Source of the DNA: Candidatus Nomurabacteria bacterium
GTDB lineage: Bacteria; Patescibacteriota; Minisyncoccia; Phycocordibacterales; SBAW01
Assembly: GCA_943348815.1 (NCBI GenBank)
Contig: CALQYT010000001.1
Location: forward strand, 12,488 to 76,487
Reading direction: 5' to 3'
Length of the DNA: 64,000 bases
The notes beneath the pieces are model-generated. The model was given only the letters and a program-made list of their open reading frames with translations, was not told where the DNA came from and ran no database searches. Position 1 is the stretch's first letter. Every line of letters begins with the position of its first letter. Positions 1 through 7,087 of the stretch are shown one piece after another. The translations under genes were made by a program, and so were the position numbers.

Positions 1-577
1 CTTGCGTGTCAGACCGCACGTTGCGCTTGGCCGAACCAGGGCCAAAGTTATCCTCGGCTATTTTGAGCGTGGTCACATTCGCCATGTATTTGTTGAGATC
101 TCCTTCGTTGAGATCTTTAACCAGCACATCGAACTCGGCCCGCGCCTTTTCAAAGTCGTACCTGCTGCCTCCTCTTTCTTTGCCTTTCGTGGCTTGAGAT
201 AACCGTTCCGCACGCACATCAAATGCATCGTTAAAGAATGAAGCTTCTTGTTGTGCCAACTCTAACTGGCCCGCTTCTGTTTTAGCATATTGCTTTTCTA
301 TACCCAGGTGTTTGGCATGACCGGTCTTGCGGCCAGGGAAACCCTTGTGTCTATACTCCATTTGGTCAGGACGTATAGACTCACGAAAAATTTTAAACGC
401 TTTTACTGCCGCACCAATAAGGCCCGGTTCACCCGACTGGTTGGCCTTTACCCAACGATCCCGGATAGCTCGGTATTCTTCCAGTTTGGCTTTTAGATCG
501 GGACTTATATCAGACTTGTGAGCTCGTTGATGCTCGTCTTTCGAATAAGCACCCGTAAATTCAGGACGGAAATTCAT
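1..577 (-). CDS. hypothetical protein, partial (3' end lies beyond the window start)
   Basis: Reverse-strand frame is open from an ATG at 577..575 (MNFRPEFTGAYSKDEHQRAH...) through position 1 with no stop. It is absent from the ORF track, which appears to list only ORFs with an in-window stop. Confidence 0.5.
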   Translation of the reverse strand, partial: MNFRPEFTGAYSKDEHQRAHKSDISPDLKAKLEEYRAIRDRWVKANQSGEPGLIGAAVKAFKIFRESIRPDQMEYRHKGFPGRKTGHAKHLGIEKQYAKTEAGQLELAQQEASFFNDAFDVRAERLSQATKGKERGGSRYDFEKARAEFDVLVKDLNEGDLNKYMANVTTLKIAEDNFGPGSAKRNVRSDTQ

Positions 578-761
578 GTAAAAAATGATTAACTACTATG
601 AGCCAATTGTTGCAACTCCCCTCCAAATTGCAAGGCAACACAAAGGACAACCAAAATACGCCTCTATACCAATACTTTTGCGCCCCAGTTCGTGGGAAAC
701 CTCGAACCCGGGTGTCCACATGTCGCAGGAAACTCTGAGATACCCGGTGTAGTATTTCGGT

Positions 762-1493
762 ATGACAAAAAACTTGGGAAATGCGGGACCCTCTAGACGC
801 AACTTCCTACAAGGACTCGGGGCAGCGGCAGCGATCGTGACAGCTGGTGAATTACTAACCAATTCCGCGGAAGCACAGGAAGCTATTGAATCGCAAGAAA
901 ATAAAATTCCTTCAGTGCAGGAAATTGATACTATGACCCGAGAAACTCTTTCCACCCTGCGAAAGCAGGACAAGAGTATATGGGTTGAAAACGCGAGCGA
1001 CGAGCTTAGGAAGCGGATATTTGGCGGAAGCGACGTATCGGCAGGTATCCTGGCTTATTCCGATGGGACATCTGGTCAGGATATTTACACTCTGCTGAAT
1101 CGACGGAGGAACCAGGCGACATCACTACCCACGTCTGATCTCGTACACCAGATGGTTGAAAAACTTGATAGTGAACTCAAAAATGCCGAGACGTTGAAAA
1201 ACGACGCCCTGCAGTTACACAACACTTATCTAGTAGAGAGCCGGACGTTCTTCCGAAAAGTCGATTCTGCACTTGACCTGGAACTCAGAGCACAAAAACT
1301 TAAGGAGCAGGCTGCAAAGCTTAAGAATATTCCCGGCCTAAATGCAGATACTCTGCAAGGGCAAGGTGAGCCCGAACGTATCGATACTCTCCCAGCGTCT
1401 GAGCAAGTACGCGAAGCTGCACTTGCACTTGCTCGTGCGAATGACAAGTTACTCGAATTGCGGACCAAGTATTTACGGGACGAGCAGAGGTAG
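762..1493 (+). CDS. secreted coiled-coil protein with twin-arginine (Tat) signal peptide
   Basis: N-terminus MTKNLGNAGPSRRNFLQGLGAAAAIVTAG carries an SRRxFLx motif followed by a hydrophobic stretch. The remainder is charged and coiled-coil-like. Confidence 0.6.
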   Translation: MTKNLGNAGPSRRNFLQGLGAAAAIVTAGELLTNSAEAQEAIESQENKIPSVQEIDTMTRETLSTLRKQDKSIWVENASDELRKRIFGGSDVSAGILAYSDGTSGQDIYTLLNRRRNQATSLPTSDLVHQMVEKLDSELKNAETLKNDALQLHNTYLVESRTFFRKVDSALDLELRAQKLKEQAAKLKNIPGLNADTLQGQGEPERIDTLPASEQVREAALALARANDKLLELRTKYLRDEQR

Positions 1494-1520
1494 CTAAAAA
1501 TGCATTTTCCCCGAAACTTG

Positions 1521-1566
1521 TCCCTTCGGTAGGAATCGAACCTGCATCAACGGCTTAGAAGTCCGC
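1521..1566 (-). pseudogene. tRNA 3'-half fragment (anticodon arm + T-arm + 3' acceptor strand) with Arg-TCT-like anticodon loop
   Basis: Minus-strand read GCGGA-CTTCTAA-GCCGT-TGAT-GCAGG-TTCGATT-CCTAC-CGAAGGG-A has a T-loop GTTCGATTC and the same anticodon loop as the intact tRNA downstream. No complementary 5' acceptor strand or D-arm can be found upstream. Confidence 0.35.
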
Positions 1567-1577
1567 CACTACCCAAG

Positions 1578-1621
1578 CCGACGCTTCGGTCGGTTCCCCG
1601 ACCCGCTTTGCGGCGTCGGGG
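1578..1621. repeat. two adjacent GC-rich palindromic hairpin repeats (CCGAC-GCTTCG-GTCGG and CCCCGAC-CCGCTTTGCGGC-GTCGGGG)
   Basis: Perfect 5-bp and 7-bp stems read directly from the sequence. The same CCCCGAC...GTCGGGG motif recurs at 1998..2021, 10446..10482 and 13835..13854. Confidence 0.6.
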
Positions 1622-1638
1622 TTGAACTATTCTCTCCA

Positions 1639-1710
1639 TGCCCCCGCGAGGAGTCGAACCTCGAATAGCGGCTTAGAAGTCCGCAGTTATATCCGTTTAA
1701 CTACAGGGGC
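1639..1710 (-). tRNA. tRNA-Arg (anticodon TCT)
   Basis: 72-nt cloverleaf on the minus strand. Acceptor stem GCCCCTG pairs with CGGGGGC; D-arm GTTA/AACGGATA/TAAC; anticodon stem GCGGA/GCCGC with loop CTTCTAA; T-arm CGAGG-TTCGACT-CCTCG; discriminator A. CCA is not encoded. Confidence 0.85.
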
Positions 1711-1971
1711 TTATGGTTCAAGTCTAATGTATCCTTCTTTTATCATTTTCTCAATGTAGTCTTTCCGTTTAAGTCTCTTTATTTTACGTTCAACCGAACG
1801 TGCTTCTTTAAGAGTTTTATACTCTTGACTTAATAAAAGTTTCTTCACACCAAAATTTGCCGTGGTGTAGGTGTGTCCGAGCTCATGTTGTCTAAGACGT
1901 TTCTTAAGATCATGAGTACTGCCTATGTAATATCTCCCTACATTGGTTTCCAAAATGTATACCCAAGCCAT
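1711..1971 (-). CDS. GIY-YIG domain nuclease family protein (YhbQ/UPF0213-like, 86 aa)
   Basis: MAWVYILETNVGRYYIGSTHDLKKRLRQH is a GIY-YIG signature. Start is at the internal ATG at 1971..1969. The TAA stop at 1713..1711 directly abuts the tRNA +1 nucleotide at 1710. Confidence 0.8.
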   Translation of the reverse strand: MAWVYILETNVGRYYIGSTHDLKKRLRQHELGHTYTTANFGVKKLLLSQEYKTLKEARSVERKIKRLKRKDYIEKMIKEGYIRLEP

Positions 1972-1997
1972 AAATACTGAGAGGAGTTGGGTGCAAG

Positions 1998-2021
1998 CCC
2001 CGACGCACAAAGTGGTCGGGG
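1998..2021. repeat. palindromic hairpin repeat CCCCGAC-GCACAAAGTG-GTCGGGG
   Basis: 7-bp perfect stem. Lies immediately upstream of the GIY-YIG start codon. Confidence 0.55.
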
Positions 2022-2036
2022 AGCCGACTCGCCCAA

Positions 2037-2651
2037 CTAGAATAGTTGGGGCAGAACGTCGGCTCGCACCATAGCATATATGATAGCAAGCACCAGCACG
2101 AAGATGCTCACCCACAAGAAATAGCGCTTGATAAACACCAGCGCCTCGGCGCCAAAGCGGTGCGTAAGGTAGACAAAGAGCGCCATGCGGATGCCGCGGC
2201 CAAGCACATAGCCCAAAAAGTATGGCACAAAGTGTACGCCCAAAAATCCGCCGGCATAAATAAATACTTTGTCCGGTATTGGCGTAAACGACGCAACCGC
2301 CATCGCCAAAAATACGTGGCCCATAATATAGTGCCGCGCCATGCGGAAAGCTCCCTGCAGGTTATAAAACGCCAAAATCGGCTCGCCGAATTGTTTAAAC
2401 AAAAATGCGGCGACAAAGTAGCCGGTTGCTGCACCCAATGCGGAGCAAGTGATGGCGACGGCGAGGTAAGAGCGGGCGCGCTCTTTGTGCGCGAGCGTAA
2501 GGGCTACCAAAAATATCTCCGGCGCCACGGGGAAAAAGAGTGCATCGGTAAACGAAATGAGCCCGAGCCACCAGAGTGCATGGGGCCGTTGTGCCTGTAG
2601 CACAAACCACGCCCACCATCGCTCTTGCCAGAGCTTGAAGTAATTCTCCAT
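2037..2651 (-). CDS. YqaA/DedA-family (VTT domain) membrane protein
   Basis: Polytopic membrane protein. The motif ...VFLAMAVASFTPIPDKVFIYAGG... is typical of the YqaA/DedA family. Confidence 0.6.
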   Translation of the reverse strand: MENYFKLWQERWWAWFVLQAQRPHALWWLGLISFTDALFFPVAPEIFLVALTLAHKERARSYLAVAITCSALGAATGYFVAAFLFKQFGEPILAFYNLQGAFRMARHYIMGHVFLAMAVASFTPIPDKVFIYAGGFLGVHFVPYFLGYVLGRGIRMALFVYLTHRFGAEALVFIKRYFLWVSIFVLVLAIIYAMVRADVLPQLF

Positions 2652-2658
2652 ATCTTAT

Positions 2659-2988
2659 TTAACGCACGCGCGAGCCGGGGGTTGCGGCCGGGGCCTCCAA
2701 AATTGCAAACGGCGTTTCGCCATCTCCCCCAACTGCCAAGATCATTGCTTGGCTCTCAAGACCCATAATCGAGCGGGGCTCGAGGTTGGTCGCAAAGGCA
2801 AACTTTTTGCCGACTATTTCTTCTAATTTTACAAATTTGGCGATGCCGGAGATAACTTGTCTTTCTTCCGTACCAAAACTGACACGCAGCTTGAGCAACT
2901 TCTCCGAGCCCTCAACCGGCTCGGCCGCAAGTATCTCCCCTACTTGCATTTCGGCTTTTTTAAATTCGTCGATAGTGATATTAGTCAT
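2659..2988 (-). CDS. csaA: tRNA-binding protein CsaA/Trbp111 (EMAP/Myf domain)
   Basis: MTNITIDEFKKAEMQVGEILAAEPVEGSEKLLKLRVSFGTEERQVISGIAKFV...AFATNLEPRSIMGLESQAMILAVG matches the tRNA-binding OB-fold family. Start is at the internal ATG at 2988. Confidence 0.75.
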   Translation of the reverse strand: MTNITIDEFKKAEMQVGEILAAEPVEGSEKLLKLRVSFGTEERQVISGIAKFVKLEEIVGKKFAFATNLEPRSIMGLESQAMILAVGGDGETPFAILEAPAATPGSRVR

Positions 2989-3514
2989 TGCGTTTTTGAA
3001 GTGCCTCGCGTGCATCAAGGATAGTAGCACGTACCAACTCCGGATCGGGCACTTGTTTAAACGTTATCTTTTCATGCGCGCCGGCGGTCTCGACCGCAAC
3101 ATCACCAAAGTTAAAGAAAGTTGGGATAAGACCGTTGAGTGTGGTTGTCACATCCTCTACTCGCTCGACCGGTGCCTCAACCACCGTGTGAGCAAAAAAG
3201 CCCTGCTGCTGGCTGTCGAGTACGCGGTGGTTAGTAACTATCCAGTAATCAAGCGCGTAGAGCGTGAGTTGATAAAACAACAGGTGCCAGCCGGCAATAA
3301 CCAAGAGCAAAATCCCCAAGCCCACCACGCGTGCTAACCCTGACGCGACGATGTCGGGGTAAAAGAAAATAATCACCGCTGCCACCACTATCACAAAGAA
3401 CAGAAGTTGCAATCCTATCCCCACAAATACCCACCAGTGCCGGCGCAGCAACAAAAGTACGTGTTCTTCTGACCGTTGGCCCTCAAAACTATTTCTTGAT
3501 TTAAAAAGTGACAT
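2981..3514 (-). CDS. membrane protein with bacterial PH (bPH_2/YdbT-like) domain
   Basis: Two N-terminal TM helices followed by ...YWIVTNHRVL..., typical of the bPH_2 family. Start at the ATG at 3514 (MSLFKSR); 8-bp overlap with csaA. Confidence 0.5.
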   Translation of the reverse strand: MSLFKSRNSFEGQRSEEHVLLLLRRHWWVFVGIGLQLLFFVIVVAAVIIFFYPDIVASGLARVVGLGILLLVIAGWHLLFYQLTLYALDYWIVTNHRVLDSQQQGFFAHTVVEAPVERVEDVTTTLNGLIPTFFNFGDVAVETAGAHEKITFKQVPDPELVRATILDAREALQKRND

Positions 3515-3515
3515 A

Positions 3516-3725
3516 TTACAGGGGGAGCACCGCGCTAAAATCAACGGCTAAAAAAAATATGCCAAAGACCATCATCAACAGCACCGAGCCGGTGAGGTAT
3601 ACCGCCGCAAGCAGCTTGGGCAAACTCCCCACCCCAAAGCGGATGAGGTGGTAGAGCGCCACAAACATAAAAATAGCCTGTGCGAGCAGGAGAACCAGGA
3701 GTATCAGGGGCGGAAGGTAGGCCAT
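3516..3725 (-). CDS. small membrane protein (69 aa, two TM helices)
   Basis: Start at internal ATG 3725 (MAYLPPLILLVLLL...). Hydrophobic throughout and tightly packed against neighbouring genes. Confidence 0.4.
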   Translation of the reverse strand: MAYLPPLILLVLLLAQAIFMFVALYHLIRFGVGSLPKLLAAVYLTGSVLLMMVFGIFFLAVDFSAVLPL

Positions 3726-3735
3726 GAGGGTTATT

Positions 3736-4152
3736 TTACACGCCCTGGGCCCTATCGAGATAGCTCTGGAGTATGAGCGCCGCGGCCGAGGCGTCGAGGT
3801 TATCGTGCGCCGGGTTTTGCTTGCGCGAATTTTCTTCGGGCGCAAATTGTCGCGCCGCGAGCGCGGAGGTAAAAAACTCACGTTCGTACTCTACGGGGAG
3901 GCCCGCAAGATCGCCCAAATCTTTTTTAAATTGCTGGATGTCTTCTTGCACCGGATTATCTTCGCCTTGCAAGCCGCGCGACTCGCCTAAAATTACTTTT
4001 TCTACCTCCTCTTTTTTTATCAGTTCGACTATGGCCGAAAGTGCTTCCCTATCGGCGGCAATCACCGTGCGGGGGAAAGCAATTTTGCCATCCTGGTCAG
4101 ACACGGCAATGCCAATCTTTTTCGTCCCGTAATCTATCCCTAAATACCGCAT
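3736..4152 (-). CDS. ruvX: Holliday-junction resolvase-like protein RuvX/YqgF
   Basis: MRYLGIDYGTKKIGIAVSD... is a RuvX signature. Start at ATG 4152..4150. Confidence 0.85.
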   Translation of the reverse strand: MRYLGIDYGTKKIGIAVSDQDGKIAFPRTVIAADREALSAIVELIKKEEVEKVILGESRGLQGEDNPVQEDIQQFKKDLGDLAGLPVEYEREFFTSALAARQFAPEENSRKQNPAHDNLDASAAALILQSYLDRAQGV

Positions 4153-4240
4153 TGGTGTAGCATAGCAAACATTGGAGGGGTGGCAGACCACCGCCTACGG
4201 CGGGGCCTCGCCAAAGGCGATGGGTGGTCTACAAAACAAG

Positions 4241-4522
4241 ATGTACTTTGCATACATTCTACAGAGCAAAACCAGTGGCCGATATTATATAGGATCTACT
4301 CAAGATCTAGAGAACCGGCTGAAACAACACAATCGTGGTTCAAATAAATCCACACGCCCCTACCGCCCCTGGCAGCTCGTATACTCTGAATCTTTCCCGG
4401 ACAAAAAATCAGCATGGTTGCGCGAACAACAGATAAAAAGATATAAAGGCGGAGAAGCGTTCCACCGCTTGCTTCGGGATCCCGTCGAAGGCGGTGATAA
4501 AAAGCTTATAATAAACGCGTAA
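4241..4522 (+). CDS. GIY-YIG domain nuclease family protein (94 aa)
   Basis: MYFAYILQSKTSGRYYIGSTQDLENRLKQHN is a GIY-YIG signature. The TAA stop at 4520..4522 directly abuts tRNA-Ser +1 at 4523. Confidence 0.8.
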   Translation: MYFAYILQSKTSGRYYIGSTQDLENRLKQHNRGSNKSTRPYRPWQLVYSESFPDKKSAWLREQQIKRYKGGEAFHRLLRDPVEGGDKKLIINA

Positions 4523-4610
4523 GGAGGGATGGCAGAGTGGTCTATCGCACCGCACTTGAAATGCGGCGTACCGCAAGGTACCGGAGGTTCGAATCCTCCT
4601 CCCTCCGCCA
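4523..4610 (+). tRNA. tRNA-Ser (anticodon TGA), CCA encoded
   Basis: Acceptor stem GGAGGGA pairs with TCCCTCC. Anticodon stem CCGCA/TGCGG with loop CTTGAAA. Long variable arm CGTACCGCAAGGTAC is class II. T-arm CGGAG-GTTCGAATC-CTCCT; discriminator G followed by CCA. Confidence 0.9.
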
Positions 4611-6104
4611 AAATTCGGAATTCAAATTTCCGCCAAAAATATGGTCGGCGCGAAGCGCCGTCTGTTCTGCATTCCCCCCACAAAATCCTGATTCTGCAAG
4701 GATTCGCCACGCTCCGCGTGGCTCAAAAAAGACGGTTCGATCCTTAATTTGAAAGTTCGAACCGACTTTTTTGTACAAATGAATTTTTTCTTCATTTGTA
4801 CACTCGTTTGCCAATTCCACATTGAATTTCAAAAACTTTTCCGTAAGTTCGAACCGATTATTCGCTTTTTGCTCAAAAGCCGATAATTTCTCTTTGAGAA
4901 GCTGTTTTTGATTAACCAACGCACTTTTAGCGTCCCGATATTCCTCTAGTGAAAGTGCGTTCTCTAGGTAAGCGTTCATCAGCTTCTCAATCTTGGAATC
5001 CAAAAGAGAAATGTCTGCTTTTGTTTTGTCTGCAAAAAGCGTAGACGATTGGGCTTCCACCAATTTGTCTTTTTCGTTTTCCGCCAACATCCATTTAGCC
5101 CAATCGTCTGGCAAAGAAACTTTTTTGATTTCTTTTTGAATTTCGGAAGTGATGATTTCCTCACGAGTATATTTTTGTGAACAAGGATTTTTCCGCTTGG
5201 TACATCGTAAATAGTTATGACCTTTTTGTGTTTCGGTGGTAATAAAACATCCACATTCTCCACAACGGAAAAATCCTCTATACAAAAATGGTTTCAGTCC
5301 TTTCGGGTGAGGTTTAGATTTCCTCATCATCACTTCTTGAACAGAATCAAAAAGTTTCTTTGAAATAATCGGTTCGTGTTTGCCTTCGTGGATTTCACCG
5401 TTATACAACATTAAACCTGTGTATATCGGATTTTTCAAAAGTTTTTGATAATTCGACACCGCAAGTTCCTTTCCGCTTTTTCGTTTCAATCCAAGTTCGT
5501 TAAATTTGTCACGGAGCTGTCTCAAAGTGAAAGACCCAGACGAATATGCCTCAAATGTTTTCTTGATTAAAGGTGCGATACTTTCATCAACGACAATTTT
5601 CCCGCCCTCGTTTATATATCCGAGTGGAGACATTTGAGGCCATATACCGTCTTTCACTTTGTTTCTTTTTCCACGCTTGATATTCTCCGACAAATTGTCC
5701 ACATAATACTTGGATTGCGAAAAAGCGATTGAGAGCATGAATTTGCCTTGCGGTGTCGGATCACACCAGAAAGTTGGAAATTTTAGCTCGGCAATTTTTC
5801 CCGTATCGAGCAAATATATTATCTTTCCACCATCAACACTATTTCTCGCTAACCTATCGGGATGCCACGCTAAAATTCCGCTTGCCTCATTTTGCTCGAT
5901 ACGAAGAAGCATTTCATTAAATACTGGCCGACCCGGAACTTTAGCAGTTTGTTTTTCAACGAAGATATCTACAACTTCAATATTCTCTTTGAGGGCGAGA
6001 GATTTTAATTCGGCCAGTTGGTCTGAAATGCTTCTAACTTGCCGATCTTCAGTATCGGTAGATTTTCTTGTATATATGAAAAACTTTCTGGTGTGATTAT
6101 TCAT
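4542..6104 (-). CDS. large serine recombinase (resolvase/integrase family) with zinc-ribbon domain
   Basis: N-terminal FFIYTRKSTDTEDRQ...SISDQ is a serine-recombinase catalytic motif. Followed by a recombinase domain, a CGECGC...C zinc ribbon and a coiled-coil. The reading frame has no stop before running through IR-A into the tRNA, so the true C-terminus is uncertain. Confidence 0.85.
   Translation of the reverse strand: MNNHTRKFFIYTRKSTDTEDRQVRSISDQLAELKSLALKENIEVVDIFVEKQTAKVPGRPVFNEMLLRIEQNEASGILAWHPDRLARNSVDGGKIIYLLDTGKIAELKFPTFWCDPTPQGKFMLSIAFSQSKYYVDNLSENIKRGKRNKVKDGIWPQMSPLGYINEGGKIVVDESIAPLIKKTFEAYSSGSFTLRQLRDKFNELGLKRKSGKELAVSNYQKLLKNPIYTGLMLYNGEIHEGKHEPIISKKLFDSVQEVMMRKSKPHPKGLKPFLYRGFFRCGECGCFITTETQKGHNYLRCTKRKNPCSQKYTREEIITSEIQKEIKKVSLPDDWAKWMLAENEKDKLVEAQSSTLFADKTKADISLLDSKIEKLMNAYLENALSLEEYRDAKSALVNQKQLLKEKLSAFEQKANNRFELTEKFLKFNVELANECTNEEKIHLYKKVGSNFQIKDRTVFFEPRGAWRILAESGFCGGNAEQTALRADHIFGGNLNSEFWRREEDSNLRYLAVRRISSAVR
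4605..4724. repeat. inverted repeat A (120 bp, perfect partner at 6126..6245)
   Basis: The reverse complement of 4605..4724 is identical to 6126..6245 by hand alignment. Its first 6 nt (CCGCCA) are the 3' end of tRNA-Ser. Confidence 0.85.
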
Positions 6105-6125
6105 AGAATTGTATTGGCAAACGAG

Positions 6126-6245
6126 GAGCCACGCGGAGCGTGGCGAATCCTTGCAGAATCAGGATTTTGTGGGGGGAATGCAGAACAGACGGCGCTTCGC
6201 GCCGACCATATTTTTGGCGGAAATTTGAATTCCGAATTTTGGCGG
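6126..6245. repeat. inverted repeat B (partner of A)
   Basis: Identical to the reverse complement of 4605..4724. Confidence 0.85.
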
Positions 6246-6429
6246 TGTTTGTTGGACAAAGTTCGAAACTATTTCGAGCAGAATCCAAATGATTAAAGCG
6301 GACTCGGCAGGGCGAAACAATTTGTCTGGGGGAAAGGATTCGCCCTGCCTCGGCTGATTTCCCGCCCGCAGGAAGGGTCTGGGGAGGAATGCGGGCGGGT
6401 TTCGGATTCGCCAAATTCTTTTTTCGCCA
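6241..6429. repeat. inverted repeat C (189 bp, partner at 8252..8440, 1 mismatch)
   Basis: The reverse complement of 8252..8440 matches with a single A/G mismatch. It shares the GGCGG core with IR-B and contains internal hairpins such as CCCGCCCGCA...TGCGGGCGGG. Confidence 0.85.
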
Positions 6430-6503
6430 ATCAGAATTCATATATGGGATTATACCTCCATATTGAGGAGAAGCGCAATAGTTGATAACATGTTAATATA
6501 AAT

Positions 6504-6710
6504 ATGTCCCAAACTTCCAAAACATTAGGCAATAACATCAAACGCTTACGGCTTCGCCGTAAAATGTCGCAAGGCGACATTTGTCGAGCAATTAGCATGG
6601 ATAGGAGCTATATGAGCGCGATTGAGGGTGGTAAAGTAAATGTTACCTTAGTGGTTTTAGAAAAGCTCGCCAAAGCGCTTGATGTTTCAGTTGATGAGCT
6701 TTTGAAATAA
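6504..6710 (+). CDS. XRE-family helix-turn-helix transcriptional regulator (68 aa)
   Basis: LGNNIKRLRLRRKMSQGDICRAISMDRSYMSAIEGGKVNVTLVVLEKLAKAL is a canonical Cro/C1 HTH. Confidence 0.8.
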   Translation: MSQTSKTLGNNIKRLRLRRKMSQGDICRAISMDRSYMSAIEGGKVNVTLVVLEKLAKALDVSVDELLK

Positions 6711-6711
6711 T

Positions 6712-7083
6712 ATGGAAAAAAATTTAAAAACAATTATTTACGATTTAGAAACTTCCCTCCTAAAACCAGAGATTAGGTCGTCGACTAGTGATTTGGATTT
6801 GCTATTAGCCGACGATTTTAGAGAATTTGGAAGTTCGGGTGAAATTTATGACAAAAAACTTATACTTGAAAGGTTGCCAAAAGATACACAAACTTCACCT
6901 GTTGAGTTTTTGGTTTCTGATTTTCAAATTCAAGAGTTAGGTGAAAATATTGTTTTGGCAACCTTTAAGACAGACAAAACCTTGCCTGATAAAAGTCATG
7001 TTGGCGCTTTGAGAACTTCAATATGGAGAAAAAATAATAACAGTTGGCAAATGATTTTTCATCAAGGAACACCGACAAAATAA
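6712..7083 (+). CDS. NTF2-like/DUF4440-like domain protein
   Basis: LLADDFREFGSSGEIYDK...W...FHQGT pattern, recognised by memory only. AT-rich codon usage. Confidence 0.35.
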   Translation: MEKNLKTIIYDLETSLLKPEIRSSTSDLDLLLADDFREFGSSGEIYDKKLILERLPKDTQTSPVEFLVSDFQIQELGENIVLATFKTDKTLPDKSHVGALRTSIWRKNNNSWQMIFHQGTPTK

Positions 7084-7087
7084 TTCT

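Follow-up and report, generated by a model that had tools for sequence, protein, structure and literature searches.

The 64,000-nucleotide (nt) stretch of DNA analyzed here (the window), from contig CALQYT010000001.1 of Candidatus Nomurabacteria bacterium, a member of the Candidate Phyla Radiation (CPR; Patescibacteriota), carries two short genes for stand-alone GIY-YIG nucleases. Each runs directly into an intact tRNA gene on the same strand and is accompanied by a broken tRNA copy and a pair of GC-rich hairpins. Comparison with related loci points to a general rule: two copies of a single tRNA gene, one of them broken, flank the open reading frame (ORF), and the copy that stays intact is usually the one beginning at the ORF stop codon or inside it. 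We read each such unit as a selfish cassette within a tRNA gene, comprising a bare GIY-YIG ORF and a cognate pair of 7-bp hairpins, and give this reading a probability of roughly 0.5.

In both units the stop codon of the nuclease ORF directly adjoins G1 of the tRNA. ORF1, of 86 amino acids (aa), ends in this way against tRNA-Arg(TCT), and the same arrangement recurs at 4241..4610 on the opposite strand, where the 93-aa ORF2 ends against tRNA-Ser(TGA). Both junctions had been described in an initial annotation of this DNA, and both hold when tRNAs called by ARAGORN and confirmed with the Rfam tRNA model RF00005 (gathering score 29) are set against the ORF coordinates. ARAGORN finds five tRNAs in the 64-kb window, in which ORF1 and ORF2 are the only GIY-YIG ORFs, and we estimate that two exact abutments would arise by chance with a probability of ∼(5/128000)^2, or roughly 1e-9. 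With 0 nt between ORF and same-strand tRNA in both window units, there is no room for a promoter or a terminator between them. Co-transcription of ORF and tRNA is thus forced by the anatomy, because the spacer is 0 nt or, in other units, the ORF overlaps the tRNA.

Features of the two tRNA-nuclease units and of an ORF-less footprint (positions are those of the window)
Feature	Position	Strand	Details
Intact tRNA-Arg(TCT), "type A"	1639..1710	−	G1 at 1710, adjoins ORF1 stop; RF00005 57.7 bits
ORF1, subfamily "a1"	1711..1971	−	ATG 1971, TAA 1713-1711; 86 aa; stand-alone GIY-YIG nuclease (predicted)
Hairpin pair 5′ of ORF1	1998..2064		CCCCGAC..GTCGGGG (1998-2021); AGCCGAC..GTCGGCT (2022-2064, hairpin nested in loop)
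Pseudo-tRNA-Arg(TCT), "type B", positions ∼8-76	1521..1636	−	Just 3′ of the intact tRNA; read from sequence
Native 5′ flank of tRNA-Ser gene	4153..4173	+	21-nt spacer from divergent ruvX start (CAT 4150-4152) to pseudo +1
Copy of tRNA-Ser positions 1-14	4174..4187	+	GGAGGGGTGGCAGA; taken as the original 5′ end of the invaded gene
a2-type hairpin pair at tRNA position 14/15	4188..4223	+	CCACCGCCtacGGCGGGG (4188-4205); CCTCGCCaaaGGCGATGG (4206-4223)
Copy of tRNA-Ser positions 15-22	4224..4231	+	GTGGTCTA
Spacer before ORF2 start codon	4232-4240	+	9 nt
ORF2, subfamily "a2"	4241..4522	+	ATG 4241, TAA 4520-4522; 93 aa; stand-alone GIY-YIG (predicted), general UPF0213/COG2827 type
Intact tRNA-Ser(TGA)	4523..4610	+	G1 at 4523, adjoins ORF2 stop; RF00005 54.6 bits
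ORF-less footprint, a1 hairpin pair	10444..10482	+	AGCCGAC..GTCGGCT (10444-10462); CTCCGAC..GTCGGAG (10463-10482)

The two proteins are predicted nucleases and, by sequence and modeled fold, members of the GIY-YIG superfamily of the UPF0213/YhbQ/Slx1 type. The Pfam GIY-YIG model PF01541 scores 50.7 bits with ORF1 and 69.1 bits with ORF2 (cut-off 22.6), and at 36% identity to each other (E = 5e-16) they form one family, the initial annotation having left room for two unrelated ones. Both lengths fall within the ∼80–110 aa of single-domain UPF0213/YhbQ (COG2827) proteins. The a1 subfamily has an extra conserved C-terminal helix, and ORF1 carries its conserved C-terminal motif, written LKRKDYIEKMIKEGYI / LKRKDYIEKMIKDGYI. 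The catalytic residues Y5, Y15, R25, H29, and E61, together with G17, are invariant in alignments of 27 and 78 sequences. An AlphaFold2 model of ORF1 (predicted local distance difference test score, 88.7) has the α/β GIY-YIG fold; searched with Foldseek, it matches 1ZG2 with a probability of 1.00 and the N-terminal domain of UvrC with a TM-score of 0.60 and a root-mean-square deviation of 2.6 Å, and also matches Slx1. The closest solved structures by sequence are the UPF0213 proteins BH0048 (1zg2_A, E = 1e-9) and EF2693 (1ywl_A, E = 3e-7), followed by Slx1, and the catalytic domain of I-TevI is a weak match. The best matches in both sequence and structure are therefore to single-domain UPF0213/YhbQ/COG2827 proteins and to eukaryotic Slx1, which is structure specific. 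We know of no function for the bacterial UPF0213/YhbQ proteins and of no description that links them to tRNA.

The family is large and essentially cellular. ORF1 has 72 database relatives, nearly all of 86–91 aa, in Kaiserbacteria, Paceibacteria, Adlerbacteria, and other Patescibacteria; an a1 profile collects 519 clusters (50% identity) at E ≤ 1e-10 among 1.84 billion representatives, and a single metagenome scan returns more than 527 a2 relatives. There are no copies among 50,697 phage records, and IMG/VR yields three weak matches for a1 and none for a2; a phage or viral vehicle is rejected on these grounds. Matches to the homing endonuclease models of PHROGs and PADLOC are confined to the N-terminal motif, and those to defense and phage families are weak and of motif level. 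Third-codon positions are near maximal entropy along the entire ORF, and a nucleotide-level cis element at its 3′ end is rejected on this ground.

We assembled 160 related CPR loci (individual loci carry L numbers below): 80 from one-genome-per-species contigs, retrieved with the a1 alignment, and 80 further loci from metagenomes, retrieved with an alignment of eight close a2 sequences. In these, GIY-YIG ORFs were located by hidden Markov models and tRNAs by ARAGORN, whose +1 may err by one base and which sometimes accepts a hairpin as a D-arm (L098, L099). Most of the loci are metagenome bins, and part of the taxon labels are doubtful. The scan for GIY-YIG ORFs ending at tRNA +1 that the initial annotation had proposed finds 110 of 172 ORFs ending −40 to +30 nt from the +1 of a same-strand tRNA, though exact abutment is seen in only 6 of 112 units. 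For a1, this is the case for 67 of 81 testable ORFs, with 7 more within 200 nt; for a2, it is the case for 43 of 91, and 15 others have a tRNA directly upstream. The estimated chance expectation is ∼0.2% per ORF at ∼45 tRNAs per Mb. Other genomes thus keep the arrangement rather than placing the gene at ordinary spacers. The tRNA partners span more than 20 different anticodons, comprising Arg (four anticodons), Thr (three), Phe, His, Val, Ile, Lys, Met, and Ala for a1, and Ser (four anticodons), Tyr, Gly, Gln, Pro, Ala, Met, and Thr for a2.

The exact position of the stop codon varies between units. It overlaps the tRNA in 50 of 112 units, abuts +1 exactly, as in the window, in 6, and precedes +1 by 1–8 nt in 41 and by 9–30 nt in 15. 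Zero spacing is therefore a minority state and not a conserved feature. The overlapping class has sharp modes, with a TAG supplied by U8-A9-G10 of the tRNA in 25 a1 units and a stop at tRNA positions 13–15 in 12 a2 units.

What the initial annotation missed, in addition to this spread of spacings, is the broken tRNA copy and the cognate hairpin pair. A second partial tRNA copy, defined by a local alignment score of at least 12, lies within 260 nt in 97 of 143 units, compared with 7% when an unrelated control tRNA is used. In 53 of 68 units, the fragment and the local tRNA have the same acceptor strand, even though the acceptor strands are of 48 different kinds. Long-range RNA pairing between the acceptor strand of the fragment and the 3′ strand of the tRNA was considered and rejected: where fragment and tRNA differ, 8 of 22 changes keep pairing, against 4.7 expected, which is not convincing. 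Units are ∼350–400 nt long, and the only ORF between the tRNA repeats is the GIY-YIG gene. In the usual order, the tRNA 5′ part (position 1 to 10–16) is followed by a hairpin pair totaling 35–85 nt, by the resumed tRNA as far as ∼17–26 and at times 33–36, and by a spacer of 1–12 nt to the start codon. The broken copy is thus truncated and/or split in the D-loop, sometimes in the anticodon loop, by the pair of 7-bp GC-rich hairpins. The duplicate is mostly of the 5′ part. The 3′ part is found in mirror units (L032, L072, L109, L112, L147, L153, L160), which run from intact tRNA through ORF and hairpins to a 3′ fragment or to positions 8–76 with hairpins in the D-loop. Some loci have a second fragment-plus-hairpin module between the ORF and the intact tRNA.

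The Ser unit of the window follows the usual order, and the Arg unit is a rearranged variant of it. Around the hairpin pair 5′ of ORF1 there is no recognizable tRNA fragment, an arrangement shared by the syntenic locus L002. The broken copy is instead the pseudo-tRNA-Arg on the other side of the intact gene, which neither Rfam nor ARAGORN calls. Its acceptor 5′ strand has been replaced and its D-loop is split by hairpins at 1576-1595 and 1596-1621; the functional type-B tRNAs of L002 and L011 are colinear with it. Types A and B of tRNA-Arg(TCT) swap the intact and broken roles between syntenic genomes.

Several smaller features surround these and other broken copies. After the pseudo-tRNA-Arg, at 1511-1545 on the minus strand, a weak terminator-like hairpin, CCGAAgggacaagTTTCGG, is followed by a T-rich run; it was not called by a consensus scan and may end the transcription unit. 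A DedA-like ORF (2037..2651, minus strand) ends within the hairpin upstream of ORF1, its last residues (..RADVLPQLF) being hairpin encoded, and L002 has the same junction. In L098 and L099, at 3237-3313, the tRNA-Pro(tgg) reported by ARAGORN has a D-arm that is actually an a2-type hairpin, CCCCGCCgtcGGCGGGG, with a normal tRNA-Pro(tgg) shortly before the ORF. In L109, 3′ of the ORF (from 354), a full-length pseudo-tRNA-Pro retains its acceptor and anticodon arms, and both its D-arm and its T-arm are family hairpins. Tandem a2 GIY-YIG ORFs occur on one contig in L135 (1048-1293 and 1347-1592, after tRNA-Pro(cgg)), L121, and L129.

The hairpin cores are specific to the subfamily of the nuclease that they accompany. 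The a1-type hairpin has an invariant 5-bp core, CCGAC...GTCGG, extended by two covarying outer pairs (C-G, T-A, G-C, A-T). Among 253 distinct hairpins, these outer pairs are Watson-Crick in 81% and 80% of cases, against ∼25% expected, and the third outer position falls to 24%. Loops range from 3 to 45 nt, and many of them enclose a further hairpin of this kind. In 788 kb, 232 of 269 hairpins (86%) lie within 150 nt of a tRNA or GIY-YIG ORF, and the window has 10 matches to the hairpin pattern where 1.3 are expected. Among a1 ORFs, 88% have a CCGAC-type hairpin within 150 nt upstream and 7% a CCGC-type hairpin; among a2 ORFs, the proportions are 1% and 49% (controls, 0–1% for the CCGAC type and 1–3% for the CCGC type). 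Since both types coexist in the window, each beside its own ORF, the match of hairpin to nuclease is a property of the unit and not of the genome. The sites at which hairpins enter the tRNA vary, from 10/11 to 16/17, at 35/36, and just before +1, and some replace the D-arm or the T-arm. A variable loop on a constrained stem with a sequence-specific core suggests, as far as sequence can indicate, that the cognate protein recognizes the folded hairpin.

Two further hairpins of these types lie elsewhere in the window. An a2-like hairpin, GTCCCGCactgGCGGGAC, at 10615-10632, ∼70 nt 5′ of tRNA-Arg(CCG) (10702) and after a terminator-like hairpin that follows tRNA-Arg(GCG), may be another footprint. 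A perfect a1-type hairpin, CCCCGACCGAAGCGTCGGGG, at 13833-13856 has the same loop as hairpins at tRNA loci and lies in frame (HPDRSVGA) in a variable linker of a RuvA-like gene (13407..14006); orthologues vary by 0–3 residues in length at this point, so that insertion there is not proven.

Comparison with tRNA loci that lack the nuclease gene, which the initial annotation had suggested for finding insertion boundaries, places the boundaries inside the tRNA-Ser gene. A tRNA-Ser(tga) without a GIY-YIG ORF lies beside ruvX in L002 and L006; the gene is empty in L002, L003, and L006 and, among syntenic relatives, occupied solely in the window. In the empty L002 locus, a 22-nt spacer containing the box TGTAGCATA separates +1 from the start codon of ruvX. 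In the window, it is the +1 of the fragment (4174) that lies 21 nt from the ruvX start, across a homologous spacer with the same box (4156-4164). Because both the spacing to ruvX and the box match the empty L002 locus, we take the fragment to be the original 5′ end of the gene, and the insertion therefore to lie inside the tRNA gene; the flank 4153..4173 is presumed to be the promoter region. Relative to the empty gene, the window has an added hairpin pair at 14/15 and, at 22/23, an added block of 9 nt, ORF, and a new copy of positions 1–22. The initial annotation had offered two readings, a conserved co-transcription unit or a selfish cassette that targets the position just 5′ of tRNA genes. 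Both survive this comparison, except that the cassette sits inside the gene and not simply 5′ of it.

Presence/absence variation at conserved target sites extends to tRNA-Arg(gcg) and tRNA-Val(tac), the genomes compared with the window being distant relatives. The tRNA-Arg(gcg) at 10485 is unoccupied in the window, where the ORF-less footprint ends 2 nt before its G1. In the syntenic loci L027, L031, L044, L052, and L057, it is occupied by hairpins and a GIY-YIG ORF: after the orthologue of the 154-aa gene that lies upstream come a fragment, the hairpins, the ORF, and the tRNA itself. In L001, the order tRNA-Arg(tct), tRNA-Val(tac), tRNA-Leu(gag) is kept and the ORF lies between Arg and Val (TGAC-ATG...TAA|tRNA-Val), with two ORF-less fragment-plus-hairpin modules remaining before tRNA-Arg; tRNA-Val(tac) is occupied solely in this locus. 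In L004, the module is duplicated before a second tRNA. Pairs of nucleases with at least 80% protein identity always share the amino acid of their tRNA, a proportion that falls to 74% at 70–80% identity and to 38% at 60–70%; the closest pairs with different partners are 70–73% identical. The empty sites, ORF-less footprints, hop to a neighboring tRNA, and partner switching lend support to the selfish-cassette reading. Taken together with the pattern of synteny, they suggest an element that is old, mostly inherited vertically, and rarely moving.

The sequence comparisons thus document the anatomy of the units, their recurrence, the pairing of hairpin with nuclease, the intragenic position, and the polymorphism of sites. 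In the model that we favor, a unit would be transcribed from the tRNA's own promoter in the order fragment, hairpins, ORF, tRNA. The intact tRNA, having no upstream region of its own, would therefore have to be transcribed through the cassette. Ribonuclease P (RNase P) cutting at +1 would free the essential tRNA and leave the window mRNAs ending in a UAA stop. In the −10 and −15 classes, the cut would remove the stop, and full-length protein would come from uncut precursors only; RNase P would then act as a built-in limiter that keeps nuclease expression low. The unit would be hard to lose because the cassette parts an essential tRNA from its promoter and imprecise loss would silence that tRNA.

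For spread, the nuclease would recognize its own hairpin type as folded DNA, and breaks at the hairpins or at the tRNA D-arm would drive local copying of tRNA sequence. The duplicated tRNA pieces would act as homology arms, allowing spread, apparently slow, to the same or similar tRNA genes in any genome. The observed layout could have arisen by a single crossover with a small circular molecule that bears the fragment, the hairpins, and the ORF, or by break repair from an occupied donor. More tentatively, and at somewhat less than even odds, the units may form a separate class of mobile element, a "break-and-rebuild" cassette that invades tRNA loops, rebuilds the gene by local copying, and uses the tRNA promoter and RNase P. 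Such an element would be, in effect, a natural cleave-and-rescue element that is hard to lose from an essential gene.

A number of observations weigh against the selfish-cassette reading. ORF1 at tRNA-Arg(TCT) is syntenic in five genomes (the window and its relatives L002, L003, L006, and L011), and its identity among them, 60–67%, shows it to be about as diverged as its neighbors (46–82%). No near-identical copies at different sites were found in the loci compared. Purifying selection on the ORF1-type protein is strong and synonymous sites are saturated. Retrieval by a conserved protein motif biases the sample toward intact ORFs, so that decayed ORFs are under-sampled. ORF1 and ORF2 contain no DNA-binding domain, for which 86–93 aa leave no space, and with the group I intron endonuclease model TIGR01453 they score 18.4 and 25.6 bits, below its cut-off of 56. 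A sigma-70 consensus scan upstream of both units gave nothing above shuffle expectation, and TAnnnT profiles upstream of 68 fragment +1 sites have no peak (free tRNAs have a weak one). Because these promoter scans are negative, the case for use of the tRNA promoter comes from the single comparison with L002. Finally, the model supplies no established step that makes the tRNA duplication, and since the intact tRNA keeps any target that is wholly internal, it leaves classical homing immunity unexplained.

Much of this could also be accommodated by a domesticated host module, an account that we consider unlikely. Here, a nuclease with a cellular role, such as Slx1/UvrC-like repair, would have its expression coupled to transcription of the tRNA and to processing by RNase P. 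The hairpins would serve in the RNA leader, for stability or processing, and the tRNA fragments would be left over from recombination between copies of the tRNA. Several observations are as expected of such a module: the ORF is syntenic at tRNA-Arg(TCT) among five genomes and has diverged about as much as the genes around it, its catalytic residues are invariant beside saturated synonymous sites, it is retained in very small genomes, frequently in multiple copies (two units per 64 kb here), its closest solved relatives (UPF0213, Slx1, UvrC) are cellular, and it is nearly absent from phages and viral contigs. However, such a module does not predict empty orthologous sites and ORF-less footprints, a change of tRNA partner at 70% protein identity, the regular destruction of the second tRNA copy, or hairpin cores that follow the nuclease subfamily inside a single genome, and two diverged paralogues at unrelated tRNAs would be redundant.

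A further account, which overlaps with the selfish cassette and which we also regard as doubtful, puts the hairpins first. A palindrome resembling repetitive extragenic palindromes (REPs) or miniature inverted-repeat transposable elements would enter single-stranded loops of tRNA genes, with the GIY-YIG protein as a nuclease acting in trans, as RAYT does. Hairpins would be confined to redundant copies and leaders since hits in a sole functional copy would be lethal, and the ORF would sit at tRNA genes because it is transcribed there. This would explain why hairpins nest in the loops of others and occupy several tRNA positions, why fragment-plus-hairpin modules occur without an ORF and in tandem, and why a core on a structure-constrained stem with covarying outer pairs co-varies with nuclease subfamily. 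Against this, the hairpins are not dispersed like REPs, 86% of them being no farther than 150 nt from a tRNA or a GIY-YIG ORF, and there is no HUH or other transposase. Taken alone, it leaves unexplained the exact junction of ORF and tRNA +1, the reuse of tRNA nucleotides as stop codon, and the origin of the tRNA duplicate.

An ORF-bearing group I or II intron, with the upstream fragment as exon 1, is very improbable. The tRNA genes of Patescibacteria commonly contain group I introns, GIY-YIG is a classic intron-encoded nuclease (PMC13011429), and the upstream fragment does match the tRNA 5′ part. Yet Rfam at E ≤ 1 on positions 1-12000 gave four tRNAs plus noise, with no group I/II ribozyme or other family, and the downstream tRNA is complete, so that splicing is unneeded. 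Fragment and ORF are separated by only ∼45–70 nt of hairpins, and ORF and tRNA by 0 nt. The intron is thereby already contradicted. Least probable of all is coincidence, an assembly or annotation artefact, or attachment-site duplication by the neighboring serine recombinase, which directly follows tRNA-Ser with its 120-nt inverted repeats and has homologues near five other units: the architecture recurs in more than 100 independent assemblies from many studies, the recombinase gene (4542..6104) is outside the unit, most units have none nearby, and the duplicated tRNA 5′ part lies on the far side from it.

The selfish-cassette reading describes a free-standing nuclease cassette in a structured-RNA gene that resembles several known systems and matches none. 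Integrase-type islands and prophages in tRNA genes are flanked by a direct repeat of part of the tRNA and preserve an intact gene; their repeat is of the 3′ part, they encode a tyrosine or serine recombinase, and they extend over kilobases. The units share the partial tRNA repeat (97 of 143) but duplicate mostly the 5′ part, measure ∼350–400 nt, contain a nuclease only, with no recombinase inside, and would rely on read-through from the tRNA promoter. In the REP/RAYT system, families of short GC-rich palindromes co-vary with the nuclease gene that they flank, as CCGAC does with a1 and CCGC with a2. REPs, however, are dispersed over hundreds of intergenic sites and RAYT is an HUH/Y1 enzyme, whereas the hairpins here are restricted to the loci of tRNAs and nucleases, and a GIY-YIG enzyme takes the place of RAYT. 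In mitochondrial tRNA punctuation, RNase P at an abutting tRNA sets the mRNA 3′ end, sometimes leaving an incomplete stop codon. The same would apply here, with the difference that punctuation is organelle wide and concerns host genes, and the units one class of nuclease ORFs.

Among systems in which a nuclease gene occupies or adjoins a structured-RNA gene, SegB of the T4 tRNA cluster (PMC2330249) is likewise an intron-less, selfish GIY-YIG gene among or next to tRNA genes. Its spread reportedly runs via a DNA break and copying of flanking markers. Seg proteins are ∼200–250 aa with a DNA-binding domain, and their genes lie in phage between intact genes with ordinary spacers. The present units differ in their bare 86–93 aa domain, cellular chromosome, fusion to tRNA +1, broken tRNA copy, and cognate hairpins; the classical architecture of GIY-YIG homing endonucleases (I-TevI, Seg), a catalytic domain joined to a NUMOD or helix-turn-helix DNA-binding domain, is absent from them. 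Non-intron GIY-YIG insertions in CPR rRNA genes share the phylum, the nuclease superfamily, a structured-RNA gene as host, and the lack of a ribozyme, and they favor the tops or bases of stem-loops (PMC11270868). By their description, they differ in that the host rRNA tolerates fragmentation and needs no duplicate, and no tRNA duplication, hairpin pair, or stop/+1 fusion is described for them (PMC11270868).

Group I introns, some with homing endonuclease genes, interrupt tRNA genes in Patescibacteria and cyanobacteria (PMC13011429). They resemble the units as selfish DNA interrupting a tRNA gene in the same organisms, and position 35/36, which they favor, is also a hairpin site in some a2 units. 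In contrast to the introns, the units have no ribozyme, and the tRNA is restored by DNA duplication, not splicing. In "fractured genes", an essential gene is split by a free-standing nuclease ORF that has conserved hairpins upstream of it (PMC2677866). There, the host is protein coding, rescue is by split inteins or subunit association, and the hairpins act by sequestering the ribosome-binding site. In the present units, a tRNA gene is the host, a second copy provides the rescue, and the hairpins are located within the fragment's D-loop. We found no published description of the arrangement in the literature searched, which reached few subscription journals.

If the selfish-cassette reading is true, CPR tRNA genes host a widespread family of minimal selfish elements that occupy an essential RNA gene in a new way, by duplication rather than splicing and with no ribozyme. 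It would also provide a candidate activity, hairpin recognition, for the very large UPF0213/YhbQ family, and a natural bacterial mRNA for which RNase P determines both the 3′ end and the stop codon. The pseudo-tRNA fragments and "tRNAs" with odd D-arms that annotation pipelines miscall in CPR genomes would be accounted for. Pairs of hairpin and nuclease within one genome are concrete biochemical substrates.

A second genetic element adjoins the Ser unit. The gene for a 520-aa large serine recombinase (4542..6104, minus strand) lies within inverted repeats of 120 nt that are 100% identical (4605-4724 and 6126-6245). The left arm begins in the last 6 nt of tRNA-Ser, and the C-terminal coding region of the recombinase is inside the arm. 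Recombinases 31–35% identical occur within a few hundred nt to ∼3 kb of units in L004, L034, L053, L062, and L068 (two). The element (4542-6245) could be invertible or resemble an insertion sequence, using tRNA 3′ ends.

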